NCBI GenBank assembly: GCA_000934665.2
Contig: JYFJ02000470.1
Location: forward strand, 1 to 64,000
Source: Catajapyx aquilonaris
Lineage: Eukaryota
Length of the DNA: 64,000 bases
Reading direction: 5' to 3'
Each line of letters opens with the position of its first letter. Within the stretch, counting starts at the first letter, position 1. Under the pieces are notes generated by a model, which searched no databases, was not told the DNA's origin, and saw only the letters and a list, made by a program, of their open reading frames with translations. A program made the position numbers and the translations under genes. Shown piece by piece: positions 5,801-60,000 of the stretch.

Positions 5801-6662
5801 GGTATTTCTACCTCAGCTTGCTTGGCATCAGACCTGTTCTTTTTCTTCCTCTCGGTTGCATCTATCCGATCACACGTCCTATACACACTCTTCCAAAACG
5901 TGGAATTGCGACGTGGGTCTATCCACGAATAGGTAAGTTTCAAATTGTTTTTGGTGACAATTATTATTATTATTTTCCAGTGCCACAGATTATTATTATT
6001 GCGATGTAATAATTTATTGGAGTACCGTGGGAAAATGAGGATCTTTGGGTCACTTTGTAGATCGATTGTGTGTCATGGACTATATCGTGTTGAAATGCAC
6101 GCACATTTTGGGATGTTGCGTGCAGGTAATCTTGATTGTCTCCGCGTATTTTTGGAGTATGTACCGGTAATCCGATTTGTTGGCGGGGTGTACACACATT
6201 TCATTACGATTTCGTCAATATAATTCAGTCAGTATTATGTTGTTTATTTTTGTGACAGTGACTAAAATGTTACATGTATTTTTCTGCTACAGATTCAGTT
6301 TTGCAATTTGGTTGTCAACGTTGCATAACCGCGAATTTTTTTTGCAGCCTTAAGCCGTGCGAATTTACTGGAAATCCCGTATTATTCGCTCCATTGTCTA
6401 TGCTAATGACCAGATAAACCCAAATTTCTGAGAGAAAAAGAGGTGAACCAGCTTTTTGATACAATTGGCGAAAAGACTAGGATTATTGTGGTCGTAGACA
6501 AAGGAGAAAAGAAATTCCCGTTTGTAGCATGACGACCCCTCCCTGTCCTCTGTGTGTGTGTGTGTGTGTGTCTCTTTTTTTTTTTTTTAATCTTCTTCCC
6601 CTCCCATCTAACCCCCCGTGAGTGGAATCCATAATATGCTCGTCTTTTTTGCACACAGCACG

Positions 6663-8335
6663 ATGGCTGATCTCGGGATTATCCGGTCGTATCCCCCAGA
6701 CTCCGATTCCAATAATTCAAGAACCCCGTTGGCCTGGCAGCATCGACATTACAAATTCCACAAAGAAAACAGCAGCAACTCTTTCGGTAAGATGACCACA
6801 TGACGAATCGCAAGTGAATAAAAGAGGAAGGAATATAATGTTCCCATTTTTTTTTTCTTCTTCTTCTTCTTCTTCTCCAATGCAGGATATGATTCGACTG
6901 AGAAGAATATGTGCCATGGAAGTTTGAGGCAGATGCCCGTGACACCTGTACCAGATTATTACGGTCCTCTCATGCCCAAGAAGAAGGCGAACACGTGCTT
7001 CCGGTACCATCACGCTCGAAGGCCCTTGTCGCCCAACAGTATCGGAAGCAGCACGTATGAACCAGAATGTCCGGTCGAGCGACTCAAACAGCGCCTGTCG
7101 TAAGTGGAGTAACTGCAGACAGCAATATCAATTACTAGTAGTGAACCTGTTACTAAAATTTGGCAACACTGCCCGGCCCTCCCTCCACTTGGACGTAGTA
7201 CGATATGCCACTACCAGTTGGCGCAAACGCTCCCTCTATGCACACTACTGCCGCTCTCAGGGGGCACTAAGTGTCATACTACCTGCACGTTGGTGATGAG
7301 TTACCGCGAGGACAAAGCCCGCACCTAAACGCTACGTGTCTGGACTCCGTTGAAGTGTGTCCCAACTTCTGACCGCTATAGAGAGTGAACATGATAGTTG
7401 TGTCCTGTCATTATAGTTGGACGGGAAAAGTGATAACTATGGTAACTACATGCACTTAGGTCCTAGGTGATGAGCCATATACAGGGAAGGGACAGAGTCA
7501 CGCTTAGTGAATTCTGAACATGATTACTGATAAAATGGAAAGTTTGTTTCTTTGTCCAGGTTTTGTTCCCATGGCAACCTGTTGCCATTGATTATCAGTT
7601 TTGCCTAATTTTTGTCAAAATGGGTAATTCACTAGTTTGCTAAAAATTTAAATAATTCGATTTTTTTCTTTCTTTCTTATTTTCAGGAGGAATCGGAGGC
7701 GGCAAATGCCTCATCATTCACTGCGCTCGATCCAGTCTGTTCCGGTTATCCGGGACATCCCGACATGGGACGGGGAGCCATGTCCGGTGCACCATTCTCA
7801 CCCGGTTTATTACCCGGACCATCTTCCGGCGACAATGAGCAAGGCCAGTTCCACTTACGACATGTGTCTGGCTCGTCTCCAGCAAAATCAGCATCACCAT
7901 CAGCCCTTGCCATTGTCCCTGCCTCCGCCTCCGTTGAGGTCATCGTCTCCGAATCACCTGGAATCCAATCCGTACTACATCCAACCGCCGCCGAAGACAT
8001 TGCCCATGATTCTTCCGAGCCAGCAGAACAAGCAGATGTCGATGATGACACCTCATCATCCTTTGGTGATACCGGCCAAGGAGGACCTATTCGCAGCACA
8101 GATGATGCCACCGCCTCTTCTTCCTCTTCCGGTCCGTGACCCGAACAAGCGCAGCAAGAGCGTGACCTCTGGTGGGTCACTGCCCTCCAAGGAGTCCGAC
8201 TCATGCAATTCGGACGACAATAGGCAGAAACATTTGTTCGGGATTCGTGGAGGACTCACGGTCCTCTGGATCATTATTTGCGTCATTGTTTTGGGTGTCC
8301 TCCTCGCACTTGTACTGTGCTTTACCATTGTTTAA
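6663..8335 (+). CDS. Uncharacterised Pro/His-rich protein with a single C-terminal transmembrane helix (tail-anchored), ~328 aa
   Basis: Coding exons 6663-6786, 6886-7099 and 7687-8335 join in frame through canonical GT-AG introns. C-terminus GLTVLWIIICVIVLGVLLALVLCFTIV*. Probable 5' UTR exon ends at donor AG|GTAAGT near 5932. Confidence 0.75.
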
Positions 8336-40800: not shown

Positions 40801-41832
40801 GATTAATGCCTTGGAATCCAAGTGTCTTTTGTTAATTATTATTTTTTGAAGACCTGTGCAGATAAAAGTTATTTCCTGTACTTTTTAGTGTTTTTATTTT
40901 AGGACCATGAATTTCATCCAAGTAGTGGCACCCTTTTTTTTGTGTGGTGTTACAAGGAGGTGAAAGTGGACACCTATTTATCACATGAATTTTTGTCCCT
41001 ACCGCTTTTTATTTTTATTTTTCTCGTGAAAAAAACAAGGACCAGTTCACGTTGATATCCCTTTTCCCCCCAAATATATGTGGAAATTTCCCGAACTTTT
41101 TCTCCCGTACCTGTAATATTGTACACAATAAATTTTACACTGCCATTTCTGTTACAGGTTGTACCACTTTTTTTGCACACCCCCATAAATATGATGCGTC
41201 AGTATTTTTTAAAATGGTAATTACCCTTTTGCGTCAGTAGCTGCCAACATTTGAAAGTTTGCTATATTTTTTTAAATAGATTATTAGCAGTTGGCAATGT
41301 TGTAATTGCATGTACAATACTTGCTGTTATTTATAGTATAATTTGCCGTATAATGTGAGCTTATTACATTGCAAGATAATTGCAACAGTTGGTACTCGGT
41401 ACGTGATGACGTCAAGGTTGCGAGTCATAAAAAGTAAAAAGGCGTAATATAAAAGCACCTGTTGCTGTTTTTAAGAGCGGGCAAGTGTACCAGTTGACTC
41501 CGCAGGTTTTGCAGAATTAATCTAATCAAATTCTGCTTATCTCTCAAAAATAAAAAGGTTGCGAAAAAGTGGGGCGCCATATTGGATTTGCCGAGGGAAG
41601 TTTAGTGCAGGTTCGTATCCACACTTTGGCACTTTAATTTATGCAGATTTTAGCAATTAAACATCGATGGATCTGTTAAATTGGACAGAACTTGTTTTTA
41701 ACTCTCGGAAATTGCAGAATCGAGAATAGTGATTGTGTGTCAGGCAGGACATGTGTAAAATGGTGGGAATGAAATCAGCTGATGTTGTTCAGCGCAGTCA
41801 AAATATGTTTTTGTTCATTTCCAGGCAGAATT

Positions 41833-44761
41833 ATGGCTGAGAGACTGCAGGTGGTTCGGCGTCATATGCAGCCTAGGAATGTGGCCATTGTATCCTTTTG
41901 ATATATGTGGAGTAATTTACATGATGGATTAGGGGAATTGGATTGTTGTTCATTATATGAGCTCCGCAGTTGGAGGCCAGCAAGAGAGTCATTCCCATCA
42001 TCACTTACCCGGAATGTTTTATCAGTTTCACATTATTTACCTATATCAAGGGATTGCTGCAGTACGACGACTGATAAAGTAACTGGCACCATTCATTGCC
42101 AGGAGTTTATGAGCAATTAAATTAATGAAGTCAGAGTGCATGTTGGATTGTTGGTGTGCATATTTAAGCGGGAGTGCGGAATTGTGGATCCAGTAATATC
42201 GTATGTAGCAGAAACCCATTAAATCCAAAAAAAACCATTTCGAGATGATCCAAAGGAAATATTTGACGATGCACTTCGTCGTCTTCTCTTTTTTGAGTGA
42301 TGTTACGAGAGAGAAATGTAAATGATCTTTTGCGAAATAGGGCTACACCTTATTTCGTAAGAAGTTTTTATCTCATATGCACTTATAATGATTACCGAAA
42401 GGAACTAGCAAATAACTCAAATTGTGCAAAACCTTATTTTATGACGTCAACAGCAATTAGATGGTATGAGAGGTAATTGTGGTTGCACAGTGCACCTTAA
42501 TTTATATAGTGACACCCTGTTGCAATAATAAGAAATGTGGTTATGATCTTGCATCATGGCCTGTTCTCTTATAAGCAGCATGCGAAGCAGTCCAATTGCT
42601 TCACCTTTGCTATGATAGTCAACATCATTTCATTGAGACATCCACAATGATGAGGATCAAGATATATCACCAGGGACTGACTTTCATGGTTTGACCTCCT
42701 GTGACTTCTTCGCAGATAAGGACTGATCTGGCCTGAATGTGGGGCACCAAGTAACATCCTTATCTAATGAAATGTTTGCGATCCAATGAGCTATATTTTC
42801 AATTCTCGAAGTAGTTTTTGTGTGTAATTTTCCAAATAACTATGGTGGGGGGAATTCGTCTTGAACTGTTATATATATGGATCACTATAAGGGAAAGGTT
42901 AGGGCAAGATAACCAAATAACGGGGAGGTGTGGTGGCCGTGATGGTAACATCACGGCTTGCTGATCGAGTGAAAGGCCCCAGGTTCGATCCCCGCCTGGG
43001 GAACTTTCCTTTCACCTGCGTCAGGAGGGTCTCTGACCTGCACTAAGGAGGTGTCTGGCAACCTAACCTCCTGGGGAACAGCACATGACCCCTTTACCGA
43101 CCTTGCACTTGCAGTCTTGCACCAACGTTCCCTCCCCAAAAATCCCTATCCCTACCCTACATCCTTGACTCCTTGCACCGGTGATGAAGTTAAAAGGAAA
43201 ATTGAAGAGTAATGGTGGTATTCCACCCCCCTAAAAAGGCTAAGTCTTATCACGGGGTAATGTTAAAAAAATAATAATAATAACCAAATAACTTCCCAAA
43301 ACACTGTATGAATGAAAAATATGACTTCATATGAAAGTGAAGACCAAATGTTTGACCCCATTACTTCAAGCAATATAATTTTAAAAAATTTATACCAACA
43401 ATTCCTGAAGGTGCTTCCAGAGAGGACATTGTCATTGCGCATTGTCATTGATATAATTATGGCATGAGTTCCAGTGATTAATACCAGTTTACTAATATGG
43501 TTAATTTGGCGTAATATACAAAGTGGCCACAAAGTTTTTTGTGCCATGCGTTATGTAGATGTTTCGGTCATTCTTTTCGTTTGATTGAGTTCTTAACTGA
43601 ATAATTCAGAACTTGCATCCCACATCCAGCGTGACATCTTTTCAGTTCTCTCCACGACAGTTTCAGTACACTGCAGACAACCCTCGCCTAACTGAAGAGC
43701 AGCGGATCCAATATGAAGAGAATGGATTTGTCGTGATTCCTAAGTTGGTTCCAGGACACCTTCTAGACAAGTACAGAGATCGGTTCTTGGATTTTTGTGA
43801 AGGGAGGGTTGACAAAGGGCATAGGATACTCATGAAGGACGTCTCCCTTGCAAAATTGGGTGCTAAGGGAGAACTGCTGTACAACAAGCTACAAGATTTT
43901 GTGTACGATGAGGTGTTGTGGGAGTATTGTAAGCTTCCAGAGGTAAAAAGTGTATAGTTTTTCATGTTATTTTATAAGTACAATTCTACTGGATACTTAT
44001 AAAAATTATTTCTGTTTGGCACAGATTGTGGATTACGTGGAGTGCTTCACAGGCCCAAATGTAGTTGCCGTCCACTCAATGCTGATCAATAAACCACCTG
44101 ATTCAGGCAGCAAAACATCCCGCCACCCACTTCACCAGGACCTGCACTATTTCCCATTCAGACCTGCAAACCGAATAGTATGTGCCTGGACAGCCATGGA
44201 AGATGTCACTGCGGAAAATGGATGCCTTGTGGTTCTTCCTGGATCCCACAAAGGCGAACTTCTCCAGCATGAATATCCAAACTGGGAGGTAAGCAGATCT
44301 GCTTTGGAGTTAATAAATTGTCTTTCCTTCTCACTTAAACATGTCAAACACACAGGGTGGAGTGAACAAAGGGTACCACGGTGTCAAAGTGAGCGACATT
44401 TCCTTGCGCCATCATGTCGTAATGGCCAAAGGAGACACGGTCTTCTTCCACCCAATCTTGATTCATGGATCTGGAACTAACAGAACTAAGGGATTTAGGA
44501 AGGCCATTTCCTGTCATTATGCTGCTGCTGAATGCCATTACATAGATGTGAGAGGAACCACTCAAGAAAATATTGCCAGGGAAGTTGAAGAGATTGCTAA
44601 GAAGAAGGGCTTCAGCTCTGTTGACTACAGGGTGAGTAACAGTAATGTCTGTTTGGATTACCGAATGCTATTGTTGTTGTTCTCATTAATAATTACAGGA
44701 TGTGTGGAAGTACCGGATGCGTCAGGTCAAAGGTGACACTGGTGACTTACTTGCTGATTAA
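41833..44761 (+). CDS. PHYH: Peroxisomal phytanoyl-CoA 2-hydroxylase (Fe(II)/2-oxoglutarate dioxygenase)
   Basis: Exon 41833-41889 encodes the PTS2-like RLQVVRRHM. Further exons 43610-43942, 44025-44288, 44357-44631 and 44699-44761 give [47 protein letters not shown] and [31 protein letters not shown]. Confidence 0.96.
41890..43609 (+). other. U12-type (minor spliceosome) GT-AG intron in PHYH
   Basis: 5' splice site GTATCCTTTT. Branch-like TTCTTAAC at 43590-43597, 12 nt before the CAG acceptor, with no polypyrimidine tract. Phase-0 join keeps the frame. Confidence 0.85.
42922..43279 (+). mobile_element. tRNA-derived SINE (copy A) inside PHYH intron 1
   Basis: A-box TGGCCGTGATGG, B-box GGTTCGATCCC, (ATA)n tail, 13-bp TSD ATAACCAAATAAC at 42909-42921 and 43280-43292. 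Confidence 0.88.
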
Positions 44762-46288
44762 GTTGAACAGGATTTCATTCAACTGTGGGAAATATGTTAT
44801 CATCAAGACAATATGAGTATAATTATGTTATCCAGCTGTGCTGATGGGTGACCTTCTGTGGCTATTGACCCAACAAATGTAATTCCAATATATTTGCTCA
44901 ATAACCAATTGTGTACCAAGTGAGATTGTGTGGTTGATGAGTCAAAAACACACCAGTAATCACATATTGTGAGTGTTTATTATCATTGAATTTTTGAGTA
45001 AGATTGAAATTTTGTAAATAAATACTGTGTCTACAAATCATTTGCCAATTTTTTACCCAATGTTTACAGGAACCTTCATTCTCAGCGTTGAGTCTTTCAG
45101 TTCTTCTGGGGTAACAATAATAATTCCTAAATCAAGTCCCTGCTGATGGTAATTTGGAGCCATGTTGTTATACTCTCCCACACATTTTTGGCTTCCCTCT
45201 GGCATGTAGTCAACTTGCCAATTTCTCTCACATCTGGCCTGCTTATTTATCTTGGCAAGTTTGTCCCACATCCCTTTTATCAGCTACAAACAGATGCCCA
45301 ATTCCATTTGTAACATGCAGGAACAGTTGCATTTGACAGGATCATATTCCAGACCAGCTCTGACCATACACTATGTATAATTCGCCTTCTTCATTTCATC
45401 AAAATAGGTATTGGATTATTTTATTAGCCTGCAGATTTTATGTCCTGTAACTGCATGTAATTTTTCTTCCAGCATGATCCGTCCAGCGCAGTACCTGCAC
45501 ACCTCATATGTAGGCTACAGGCAATCAATGCGTCAGTCCAAGTCAATGCCCGCCATGGGAACCCCTCCCTGGGCAACCCAGTTGCCGCTGCTGAATAAAC
45601 CATGGCTAATTGCGGTTCTGGAGAGATTAAATGGAGGCATGGCAGGCAGTGTAATCAATGCTGGGGCTGGCACAGCAGCCAGGAACAACATTGATTCAAC
45701 TATGGATCCATGGGGGTGGAAAATAGGACTCTTGTCTGTCCCCCCCTTCTCTCTGTGCTCCTACCCCCAAAAGACACGTAAAAATCACTCCCAAAATTCG
45801 TCGAAATGGACCTGCGCGGTCTGTGCACCCCTTTTCCCCCCCGTCGTCGTTTTATAGTCGGCGACGGCGCATTAGACCCCAAACAAAACGTCGGTACAGC
45901 TGCAGACCTCAGCCTCCATAATGCAGAGGAGGTGGCCCCGTTGCTAATCGAATCTGGAGCGGATGTTGACGGGTCCTTTTGCATTAGATAGAGTTGGCTA
46001 GCTAAGCAAAAAAAAAAAAGAAGGACAGAGCCAACATCTCACAAGTCTATGGATTGAAAATCGATGTGGAATAATCCGAGAGTGTCGCAGACATTTGTCC
46101 CCGATTGTCAGCTGGCAGAAGCAGGTGAGAGAGACGTCGATGCAGCAAAGAGCGCCCTATTTGATGTGTTAACCTTGACCCGTGAGATAATAACCAGGTG
46201 TCAATATAATGATTTCACAGATGCGTGTGAGTGGTCAGAGGTCAGCGTGACTGGGACGTCGATCGACCATCTGCTGCTCTGACAGGAC

Positions 46289-57082: not shown

Positions 57083-60000
57083 TAATAACTAACATCAGAA
57101 ATACTACTGCAGCAGAAAAATTATTACAGTAGAACCTCGATTATCTGTCACCCACAGGACTGGTGCATTGTCGGATAATAGAATATGTTGGATAATCTGA
57201 GAGGCAAAGGAAAACACAACAAAAAGCATTAAAAATCATGAAATAATGTACAATATTATGCTTTTCTATGAAGTACCAGGTAGTTGAAGTGTTTTTCTTT
57301 TATGTACACACACTGCTGTTTAAAATTTAACTGGGGCAATACAAAGCAAATGATTGCAGTATTTGATGAGAAATGCTTATTGCTGGAGCGGGACTGTTGG
57401 ATAAATGGGTTCTACTGTACGTATAGTCGCAAGCAGAAGACCAGCCCATACGCAGTTTAAATTGACTACAAACATGCACTATAAAGTGTGAATAATTGCA
57501 TCTTAATTAATTTTACACCATATTGCCTCTTTACAATGCACTTTTCATTGGTGCACATATTTTGCTGCCTCCCTAGGTCTTTCTTAAAATGCTACCCCTT
57601 ATATGTACTGTGTAACAAAATTCCACTTGAAAGTGGATCCCATTGTCATTGGACGAACAGGCCGATATCAGCTTCTATTTCGAAGCTCAGCACACTTGAA
57701 TAGGGCGCAAACTGTTGATGTAGCATGAAACAGGAAGTTTCATTTCCTGTCGCTGAGAGATTGATTTTTGTCGCAGGAACTCCTGAATATTGGTTTCAGG
57801 GGTATGATGAAGCGTTTTATGGTGAGGCTTTTCTGTTTGCAAGGGATGTCGAAAGCACAGTGGCTGTTTTTTAAATTCTTGGCCTGTTAAGGGTAGGATT
57901 TCATCATTAAGCTGGAAAATCCAAACCTGCATCTCTAATCTGTCATCTAGTAAAACTTGATGCGTCTTTGTAACTTGAAGCACTGCCGATGTTTCCACAG
58001 AAAACCAGTCTTGACATAGATCTGGATTGTAGATTGGTTTAATATCATGCCTATGAATAAATGTGTGGTGTAAAGGTGTTCCCGAGAGAGGAATGTGGTG
58101 TTCTGATTATGCTAATACAGTGGGGCCACATCGGGGCCATGACAAAAAATTGTCTCATAACACCGGTCGGGTTCTTGTTTTTGACTCCTGTTAACAAAGT
58201 CCGCGCAGGTGTCGAGTGCAGTCACAGGACCGCCGTCATTCCCTACTTGCATAAAAAATCATCAGTAGTATAGCATTATAGCAACCAAACTGGTCCGACT
58301 AACCGTGGAAATCACCAGCTATGCAGGAAAAATTACATTTATGGTATTGATTTGATTCTGGTCCTGGCGATTCGGTCCAAAAATGGAGGGGACCCGATAA
58401 ACTGGGCCACCAATAAAGCGGGTCACACTGTATTTTGTTCATGAGGTCAATGTTCATGAGGTGAAAAAAATTATGTGATGGCATGCAGACAAAAGGAGAA
58501 GAATTTCTTCTTTTCATGTCAGGTTTCTATGTCAAGTGTGACATGGAACGTGAGGTTGCATTATTTTAACTTGAGTCAGGAGGAATAACATTCATAGACT
58601 TGAGAAGTGTTGGAACAAAAAAATCTTATTCATGATCCTCCCCATTCTGCATTGACTTGAAGTTATGAGGAAACGCCACAGATTCTTTGTTGTTGGGGTT
58701 ATCTTCAATACCACAGGTCAATTGGGCTCTAGACCTGGCCCAGTACTTTATTGTTAATGTTACAACTGCAGTCACAACTGCAAATGATTCCTCCAATTAT
58801 TGATGAAAATTGCTTTGAATTTGTTGGACGAAACAACTGCGTAAACAGTCATGAGGTGCCGTTAGATTCAGAGGGATGAGTGACCTTAACGCAGTATTGT
58901 AAATATAACTGCATTGAGGGAGACGGAGTGGCGCCGCGGTAACGCGCGCGCCCACGGAAGTTAAGGTCCCGGGTTCAATCCCCACCCGGGGTTCCCACCT
59001 TCTTTCGTGCAGAGTTGGGCCATCTCTGGCTTCGTTTCGGGTGGCAATTTCCGATAGACTAAGCCACCCGGGGGAGTTCACAAAATGACCAATTAACGAC
59101 AGCGCACATGCACTTTGCACATCCCCTCCTACAATCCCTTGGAACATATTAAGTAATGTTTCATTACATAGTTCCCAATGGTGGTATTTCCACCCCCCTA
59201 TAGACCCAACAGGTCATAACGGGGTACATTTAAAAATAAAAAAATATATATATATATATATATATATAACTGCATTGGAAGACACCTAAGAAATGATCTG
59301 TATTAGTGTAGCCTATTGCATGCCTCAGAGCCTAATTATGCATTGTTTTAATATCTCAAATTTTACAGAATGCTTAAGCATTTGTTTGTTTTCTTTTGAC
59401 AGGGACCGCAGAAGAGACCGGGAGTATGATCGAGACCGCTATGACCGCAACCGTGACCGCTATGATGCAGACCACGCATATGATAGTGATGGTGGGGAGC
59501 GATACCGGAGCAACCAGGATCACTATGATGAAGGTCGTGACCACTATGATGCATCTTCCTCAGGAGGTGGTGGTGGAAGTGGTGGTGGGGACCGGGACAG
59601 ACATGCTGAGTCGTCCTCTACAGAGACCAGGTCCCGTGGTTATGACCGTGAGCGAGGGGACCGTGACAGGGACCGTGATTATGAATCCAGCCGATCACGA
59701 TCCAGCAGAGATGATAAGTACAAGGAGGACCGCTATGACAGGGATCGCCGAGACAAGCGAGACCGCAGCCCAAGACGGGATCGAGACAGAGACAGGGAGC
59801 GGGATAGGGAGCGGGATCGTGAGAGGGATAGGGATCGAGATAGAGACCGTGATCGGAGGGAGGACCGTGGATATGATCGCAGTTGGAGCCATAGAGATGA
59901 TGACTATAGGGACAGGAGCCCTGATAGCTATGGATATGGGAGTGGAAGGTAAGAATGTGTGCCACAGGATCCAAAAATCTTTGTTGTTTTGGGCTCTGTT

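Follow-up and report, generated by a model that had tools for sequence, protein, structure and literature searches.

The PHYH gene of the pancrustacean arthropod Catajapyx aquilonaris very probably retains an ancestral U12-type intron of the animal PHYH gene, in a genome that has all the minor snRNAs. The intron, the second of five, separates an exon that encodes a PTS2-like leader from the exons of the enzyme. It lies in a stretch of 64,000 nt, which is referred to below as the window. Judged by its sequence signals, intron 2 is of the U12 type, and the splice that removes it is present in a public contig. The coordinates of the gene and of the related loci are collected in Table 1.

Table 1. 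Features of the PHYH gene in the window and of related loci elsewhere in the genome
Feature	Location	Strand	Remarks
PHYH exon 1, non-coding	41467..41610	+	From X1 contig; 41467 is the contig start, not a mapped start site
Intron 1, GT-AG, 5' UTR	41611..41824	+	214 nt; major-type donor; U11 pairing -8.5 kcal/mol
Exon 2	41825..41889	+	8 nt of UTR and 19 codons, ATG at 41833
PTS2-like nonapeptide RLQVVRRHM	41842..41868	+	Residues 4-12
Intron 2, GT-AG, U12-type by its signals	41890..43609	+	1720 nt, phase 0
U12 donor GTATCCTTT	41890..41901	+	In-frame TGA next at 41899-41901 ends the retained-intron reading
SINE, high-copy	42922..43279	+	A box 42934-42945, B box 42982-42992, TAA-repeat tail
U12-branch-like motif TCCTTGAC in SINE	43162..43189	+	Next AG ends at 43189; possible decoy acceptor
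U12 branch site TTCTTAAC	43590..43597	+	Motif match
Exon 3	43610..43942	+	Gene model, X1 contig
Exon 4, H-x-D motif (presumed iron-binding)	44025..44288	+	Gene model, X1 contig
Exon 5	44356..44631	+	Gene model, X1 contig
Exon 6	44699..44911	+	Final 20 codons with the stop ending at 44761; the rest, up to the X1 contig end, is 3' UTR
PEX7, compact multi-exon	L013, G000:C485, about 80900-82550	minus	WD40 frames, yeast Pex7 match
AGPS, PTS2-like leader RLLVIRGHL	L125 (G000:C226, about 89580) and L117	minus	Pfam PF02913, motifs
Second PHYH, leader RLEVLLGHV	L011, G000:C800:5165-3711	minus	Genome search

Signals and splicing of intron 2

The original prediction had described a U12 donor, a branch site 12 nt from the terminal AG, and an in-frame join between the flanking exons, and all three are in the sequence as described. 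The donor begins at 41890 with GTATCCTTTT, directly behind the 19 codons of the preceding exon, which end in ATT, and 12 nt separate the end of the motif TTCTTAAC from the end of the intron, where the AG ends at 43609. Joining 41889 to 43610 is a phase 0, in-frame step that yields an open reading frame of 330 amino acids. This very junction was matched exactly in one spliced contig (1295 nt) of the public run X1, which omits the intron with no positional ambiguity and likewise skips the other introns of PHYH, five in all. X1 is the one public run with the region; it is available as contigs only and is not on record as RNA.

We then determined how far the two motifs exceed what chance would provide. 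Taken alone, both were at chance level in 128 kb, with 2 donor motifs found versus 1.8 in shuffled sequence and 10 branch motifs versus 9.9 (100 shuffles). The joint chance of having the donor and the branch motif at the two ends of one given GT-AG intron is about 8e-8. The missing pyrimidine tract cited earlier for this intron is uninformative here, since the last 20 nt of intron 2 are 0.55 pyrimidine and the four other introns of the gene score 0.50-0.75. Pairing with the snRNAs of the genome itself distinguished the donor: with U11 it reached -13.7 kcal/mol, the strongest value among the five donors of the gene (-3.1 to -8.5 kcal/mol for the four others), and with U6atac -10.3 kcal/mol. The branch site TTCTTAAC pairs with U12 at only -5.3 kcal/mol, and duplex energy does not discriminate in this case, because a stretch of the major intron 4 pairs better (-12.1 kcal/mol). 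A pyrimidine run at 43569-43583 is followed by an AG at 43588-43589, 20 nt before the true acceptor, and this pair has the look of a major-type acceptor.

It is extremely unlikely that the major spliceosome now splices intron 2 and that its U12 signals are relics. The GT-AG ends are compatible with both spliceosomes, the branch site TTCTTAAC deviates from TCCTTAAC at one position, and the pyrimidine run just mentioned could serve such a reading. Against it, however, the donor matches the U12 consensus perfectly and has T at -1, splicing uses the AG that follows the branch motif by 12 nt rather than the one directly after the pyrimidine run, and all four minor snRNAs are in the genome. The last point came from a search with Rfam cut-offs, which 4/4 minor families passed: U12 at 98.2 bits, U11 at 95.2 bits (two matches), U6atac at 85 bits, and U4atac at 66.1 bits. 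The claim that this animal retains the minor spliceosome is thus borne out at the level of its U11, U12, U4atac, and U6atac genes, and we infer that intron 2 is spliced by the minor spliceosome in this animal. In this preferred reading, U11 and then U6atac would read the donor, U12 would read the branch site, and removal of the 1720-nt intron would join the PTS2 leader to the enzyme.

Structure and product of the gene

The five coding exons join into a single frame of 330 residues, with phase 0 introns throughout. The PTS2 exon had been taken for exon 1; its coding of the PTS2-like peptide stood, while its rank did not, as the X1 contig places a non-coding exon and an intron of 214 nt upstream, making it exon 2. 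The spliced leader of 152 nt contains no ATG and has in-frame stops upstream. With A at -3 and G at +4, the first AUG (41833) stands in a strong start context. The same X1 data contain one unusual joint, in which 41658 is followed by 36 letters of other sequence and then by 41029; it may reflect a repeat or an artefact. The transcript contig of the upstream gene extends to 41144, about 320 nt short of PHYH exon 1.

The H-x-D motif in exon 4 is presumably the iron-binding one, and the H-x-D, H, and R residues that are invariant in the homolog alignment (A1), which we take to be catalytic, are also present in the model. Exon 4 matched human PHYH (PDB 2a1x) with an E value of 3.7e-47, against 1.2e-9 for PHYHD1. 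The transcript is unlikely to stem from a processed copy, because a search of the genome with exon 4 found no second identical copy. Three tandem weak matches to exon 4 (47% identity) lie on another contig (G000:C223:11018-16800) and are probably more distant PhyH-domain genes. In a tree built by a quick method only, the PHYH of the window groups among pancrustaceans (a group of 27 rows, SH-aLRT 86), and the place of the paralog described below is not fixed by this tree. The neighboring genes in the window (1750-63854) resemble, by our assumption, HEXIM, NUP188, SEC13, BRPF1, Slob/PXK, DENND6, and RBM5/10.

PTS2-like leader

The nonapeptide RLQVVRRHM lies near the N terminus and matches a loose pattern with an R-[LIVQ]-x-x-hydrophobic core and H at position 8. 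It fails the strict consensus R-[LIVQ]-x-x-[LIVQH]-[LSGA]-x-[HQ]-[LA], as worded in excerpts of PMC4726662 and PMC4585086, at position 6 (R) and position 9 (M). To place these deviations, we used homologs collected by exon 4 alone, 120 listed and 89 full length. The loose pattern was matched by 64/89 full-length homologs, a few of them spurious, and missed decapod leaders beginning R-M; the strict pattern was matched by 25/89. R at position 6 recurs in 4 of the 64 pattern-matching homologs, and M at position 9 in none of the 64, though in 1 of 80 metagenome loci (L014). The nonapeptide aligns with the leaders of PHYH homologs, and the leader ending in H-M may, by inference from its sequence, work as a PTS2. 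Met12 (41866-41868) is an in-frame AUG that ends the motif in what looks like a weak start context; a start there would give a near full-length PHYH without the signal.

Leaders of this kind are found on PHYH in Rhodnius, Panstrongylus, Cloeon, Petrolisthes, and Varroa, with none in the Daphnia entry. Because they occur in bugs, a mayfly, decapods, a mite, and horseshoe crabs, a kept PTS2 on PHYH looks, on these comparisons, like the ordinary arthropod state outside flies.

PEX7 and other candidates for PTS2 import

We asked whether the genome also holds the receptor. A short pattern, which we take to be that of PEX7, matched once, in contig C485 (G000:C485; the control also matched once), where the reading frames look like those of a WD40 gene with several exons. 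For one stretch of this gene the best natural match was yeast Pex7 (PDB 3w15), with an E value of 1e-12 and the next natural protein at 1.9e-7. For the other stretch yeast Pex7 (2e-14) came second among natural proteins after LIS1 (1.3e-14), and it was the only listed chain to have a stretch that passed on its own. A first, degenerate PEX7 pattern had given a single match, which was discarded as chance, with no WD40 frame at the site.

The gene on contig C226 is taken to be AGPS by its motifs and its Pfam PF02913 match. Its leader RLLVIRGHL follows a Met about 2 kb upstream of the next recognizable AGPS exon, and the join between them is putative. R-L-x5-H leaders near the N terminus are thus present on three proteins, the two PHYHs and AGPS, and a PTS1 consensus ending is absent from both PHYH genes (in the window gene, at the stop ending at 44761). 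A search for thiolases had 16 candidates and yielded 14 matches, spread over five contigs; no PTS2-like leader was seen in the C658 and C454 stretches, and read by eye, the thiolases on the five contigs appear to be of non-peroxisomal types.

The original prediction had this animal retaining PEX7/PTS2 import, and a PEX7 gene together with PTS2-like leaders on three proteins agrees with that expectation. According to the parts of PMC4726662, PMC3837297, and PMC4585086 that deal with it, the PTS2 route was lost in C. elegans, Drosophila, and diatoms. Unlike Drosophila and C. elegans, then, this arthropod has PEX7 and PTS2-like leaders, and PEX7 would probably import the 330-aa PHYH precursor into peroxisomes.

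SINE in intron 2

The insertion of a SINE in the intron, also predicted, was confirmed. The element has an A and a B box, a simple TAA-repeat tail, a target-site duplication of 13 bp (42909-42921 and 43280-43292), and many copies, that is, all the traits of a tRNA-derived SINE. The genome search gave 1497 candidate copies, and 40/40 scored matches were at least 95% identical. ARAGORN called no tRNA gene on the element. Elsewhere in the window, at 59177-59246, lies a piece of the 3' end of this SINE that has diverged to 74% identity. We propose that the SINE is a passenger in intron 2.

The SINE contains a U12-branch-like motif, TCCTTGAC, shared by 2/3 other aligned copies. It might act as a decoy by diverting, with the AG at 43189, a share of the transcripts to a non-productive form whose product would end after 34 residues, a reading that we regard as highly improbable. 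The motif pairs with U12 at -9.9 versus -5.3 kcal/mol for the true branch site and has 11 nt in common with the listed minor branch site of human PEX16. However, about 4% of 1720-nt sequences would contain such a motif with an AG by chance, and this one was noticed after the fact. Moreover, the distance from the branch A to its AG is 21 nt, versus 13 nt at the true site, and the joint 41889-43190 is not seen in X1.

Effect of splicing on PHYH output and targeting

The original prediction had also held that the efficiency of U12 splicing could gate the production of peroxisome-targeted PHYH. This was not supported. A transcript retaining intron 2 reads V-S-F-stop, with the stop at intron codon 4 and a product of 22 residues. 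In exon 3, the first Met in frame is residue 94. Because the retained intron stops at codon 4, poor splicing would lower the amount of enzyme without re-routing it. Minor splicing would thereby affect only the amount of this PHYH, as in any minor-intron gene, and a reduced output by inefficient minor splicing fits the general model set out in PMC4066798.

The genome moreover contains a second PHYH gene, which has a PTS2-like leader of its own and no intron at the U12 site. Two major introns of the window gene are likewise missing from it, and one of its introns has no counterpart in the window gene. Reads matching this paralog are present in X1. About 1 kb upstream of it (L011 about 6170-7250) is an inverted repeat, near-perfect by eye with arms of about 500 bp, which is perhaps a MITE.

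The paralog bears on the reading in which intron 2 is a regulated valve, that is, slow or regulated U12 splicing controls peroxisomal PHYH while the copy without the intron provides a constitutive supply. We consider this unlikely. It would draw on the fact that the two paralogs differ in exactly the U12 intron and on mouse Phyh, a minor-intron gene that, according to bioRxiv 10.1101/2022.11.10.516037, is one of two genes down in 4/4 regions of the U11-null limb. The paralogs differ, however, also by the two major introns absent from the second gene and by its extra one, so the U12 intron is not singled out, and no X1 contig covers the unique sequence of intron 2, although contigs cannot show absence. 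In addition, AGPS, PEX7, and ACAA1 are missing from the human/mouse minor-intron table, which argues, as far as that table goes, that there U12 does not control the PTS2 route as a whole.

A switch of localization would instead produce a cytosolic PHYH lacking the PTS2, either by skipping of exon 2 (from the donor at 41611 to the AG at 43588-43589) or by a start at Met12; such a switch is very unlikely. The AG in question lies 20 nt before the true acceptor and behind a pyrimidine run, the AUG of the atypical Met that closes the nonapeptide is in frame, and several vertebrate homologs are annotated as forms of 238-240 aa without the leader. Nevertheless, the exon 2-skipping joint is not seen in X1, and after skipping the first in-frame Met would be residue 94, with loss of part of the conserved domain. 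The context of the first AUG is strong by the general rules for A at -3 and G at +4, and a Met12 start would in any case be independent of U12 splicing. We are just as skeptical of a division of roles following duplication, in which the paralog, having lost the U12 intron, is the constitutive peroxisomal enzyme and the window copy is tunable, with the decoy branch site of the SINE as a throttle and a weakened PTS2 with a cytosolic start at Met12. No tie is seen between U12 splicing and targeting, and the preferred reading remains that of an inherited U12-type intron, the removal of which would be needed for PHYH as such.

Vertebrate counterparts and ancestry of the intron

The idea that the intron is unusual was not supported: mammals and fish have a counterpart already on record, and a PTS2-like leader is a common feature of PHYH in arthropods. 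In the tables of PMC6717393, the minor intron of human PHYH (chr10:13298246-13299967, 1722 nt) has the donor GTC followed by GTATCCTTT, and that of mouse Phyh (3683 nt) has ATT followed by GTATCCTTT. The mouse donor is thereby identical to the donor in the window from -3 to +9 (12 nt). The branch sites read TTCTTAAC in the window, TTTTCCTTAATT in mouse, and TTTGCCTTAATT in human, as tabulated there. In zebrafish, Table S6 of PMC11347168 lists the phyh intron as minor and as responsive in two rnpc3 mutant datasets. The near-equal length of the human intron (1722 nt) and the one in the window (1720 nt) is a coincidence, since 358 nt of the latter are a recent SINE.

The tables of PMC6717393 and PMC11347168 give no intron rank or phase, and the match in position is therefore that of protein annotations with an indel of one residue. 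A mammalian annotation (P0075) reads V-S-F, which equals the translation of the donor, 8 residues past the PTS2, and the distance from the PTS2 to the donor is 7 codons in the window gene versus 8 in P0075. In P0075, P0058, and P0110, two further residues precede H/Q-P-x-S, as in exon 3 of the window gene. On this basis, the intron in the window would be the same ancestral intron as the vertebrate one, shifted by a one-residue indel. The window gene differs from vertebrate PHYH in its arthropod host, its upstream non-coding exon, and the lineage-specific SINE in the intron.

A metagenome scan gave 80 PHYH loci, nearly all without introns, and none of the 80 has a U12 donor behind the PTS2. Three of them (L085-L087) have a phase 0 intron six codons past the PTS2 with a major-type GTATGT donor. 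Comparison of L085:3160-3420 with L040 shows this intron to be short. The L085 intron is possibly the outcome of a U12-to-U2 conversion.

We found no papers on a PHYH U12 intron in arthropods, and the MIDB and IAOD databases may already hold such introns. PHYH is not named in the supplements of the insect U12 survey PMC3291851 and of PMC7367187. Being already catalogued in human, mouse, and zebrafish, the PHYH minor intron is not new in kind, and the present results are useful data points rather than a new mechanism. They would gain weight if competition between the transposon-borne U12 branch site and the real one were demonstrated. They provide one genome with a pair of PHYH paralogs, with and without the U12 intron, and, with PEX7 and three PTS2-like leaders, indicate that the loss of PTS2 import in Drosophila does not hold for this arthropod. 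They probably extend the vertebrate PHYH minor intron to an arthropod, in which case the intron would date to the bilaterian ancestor.
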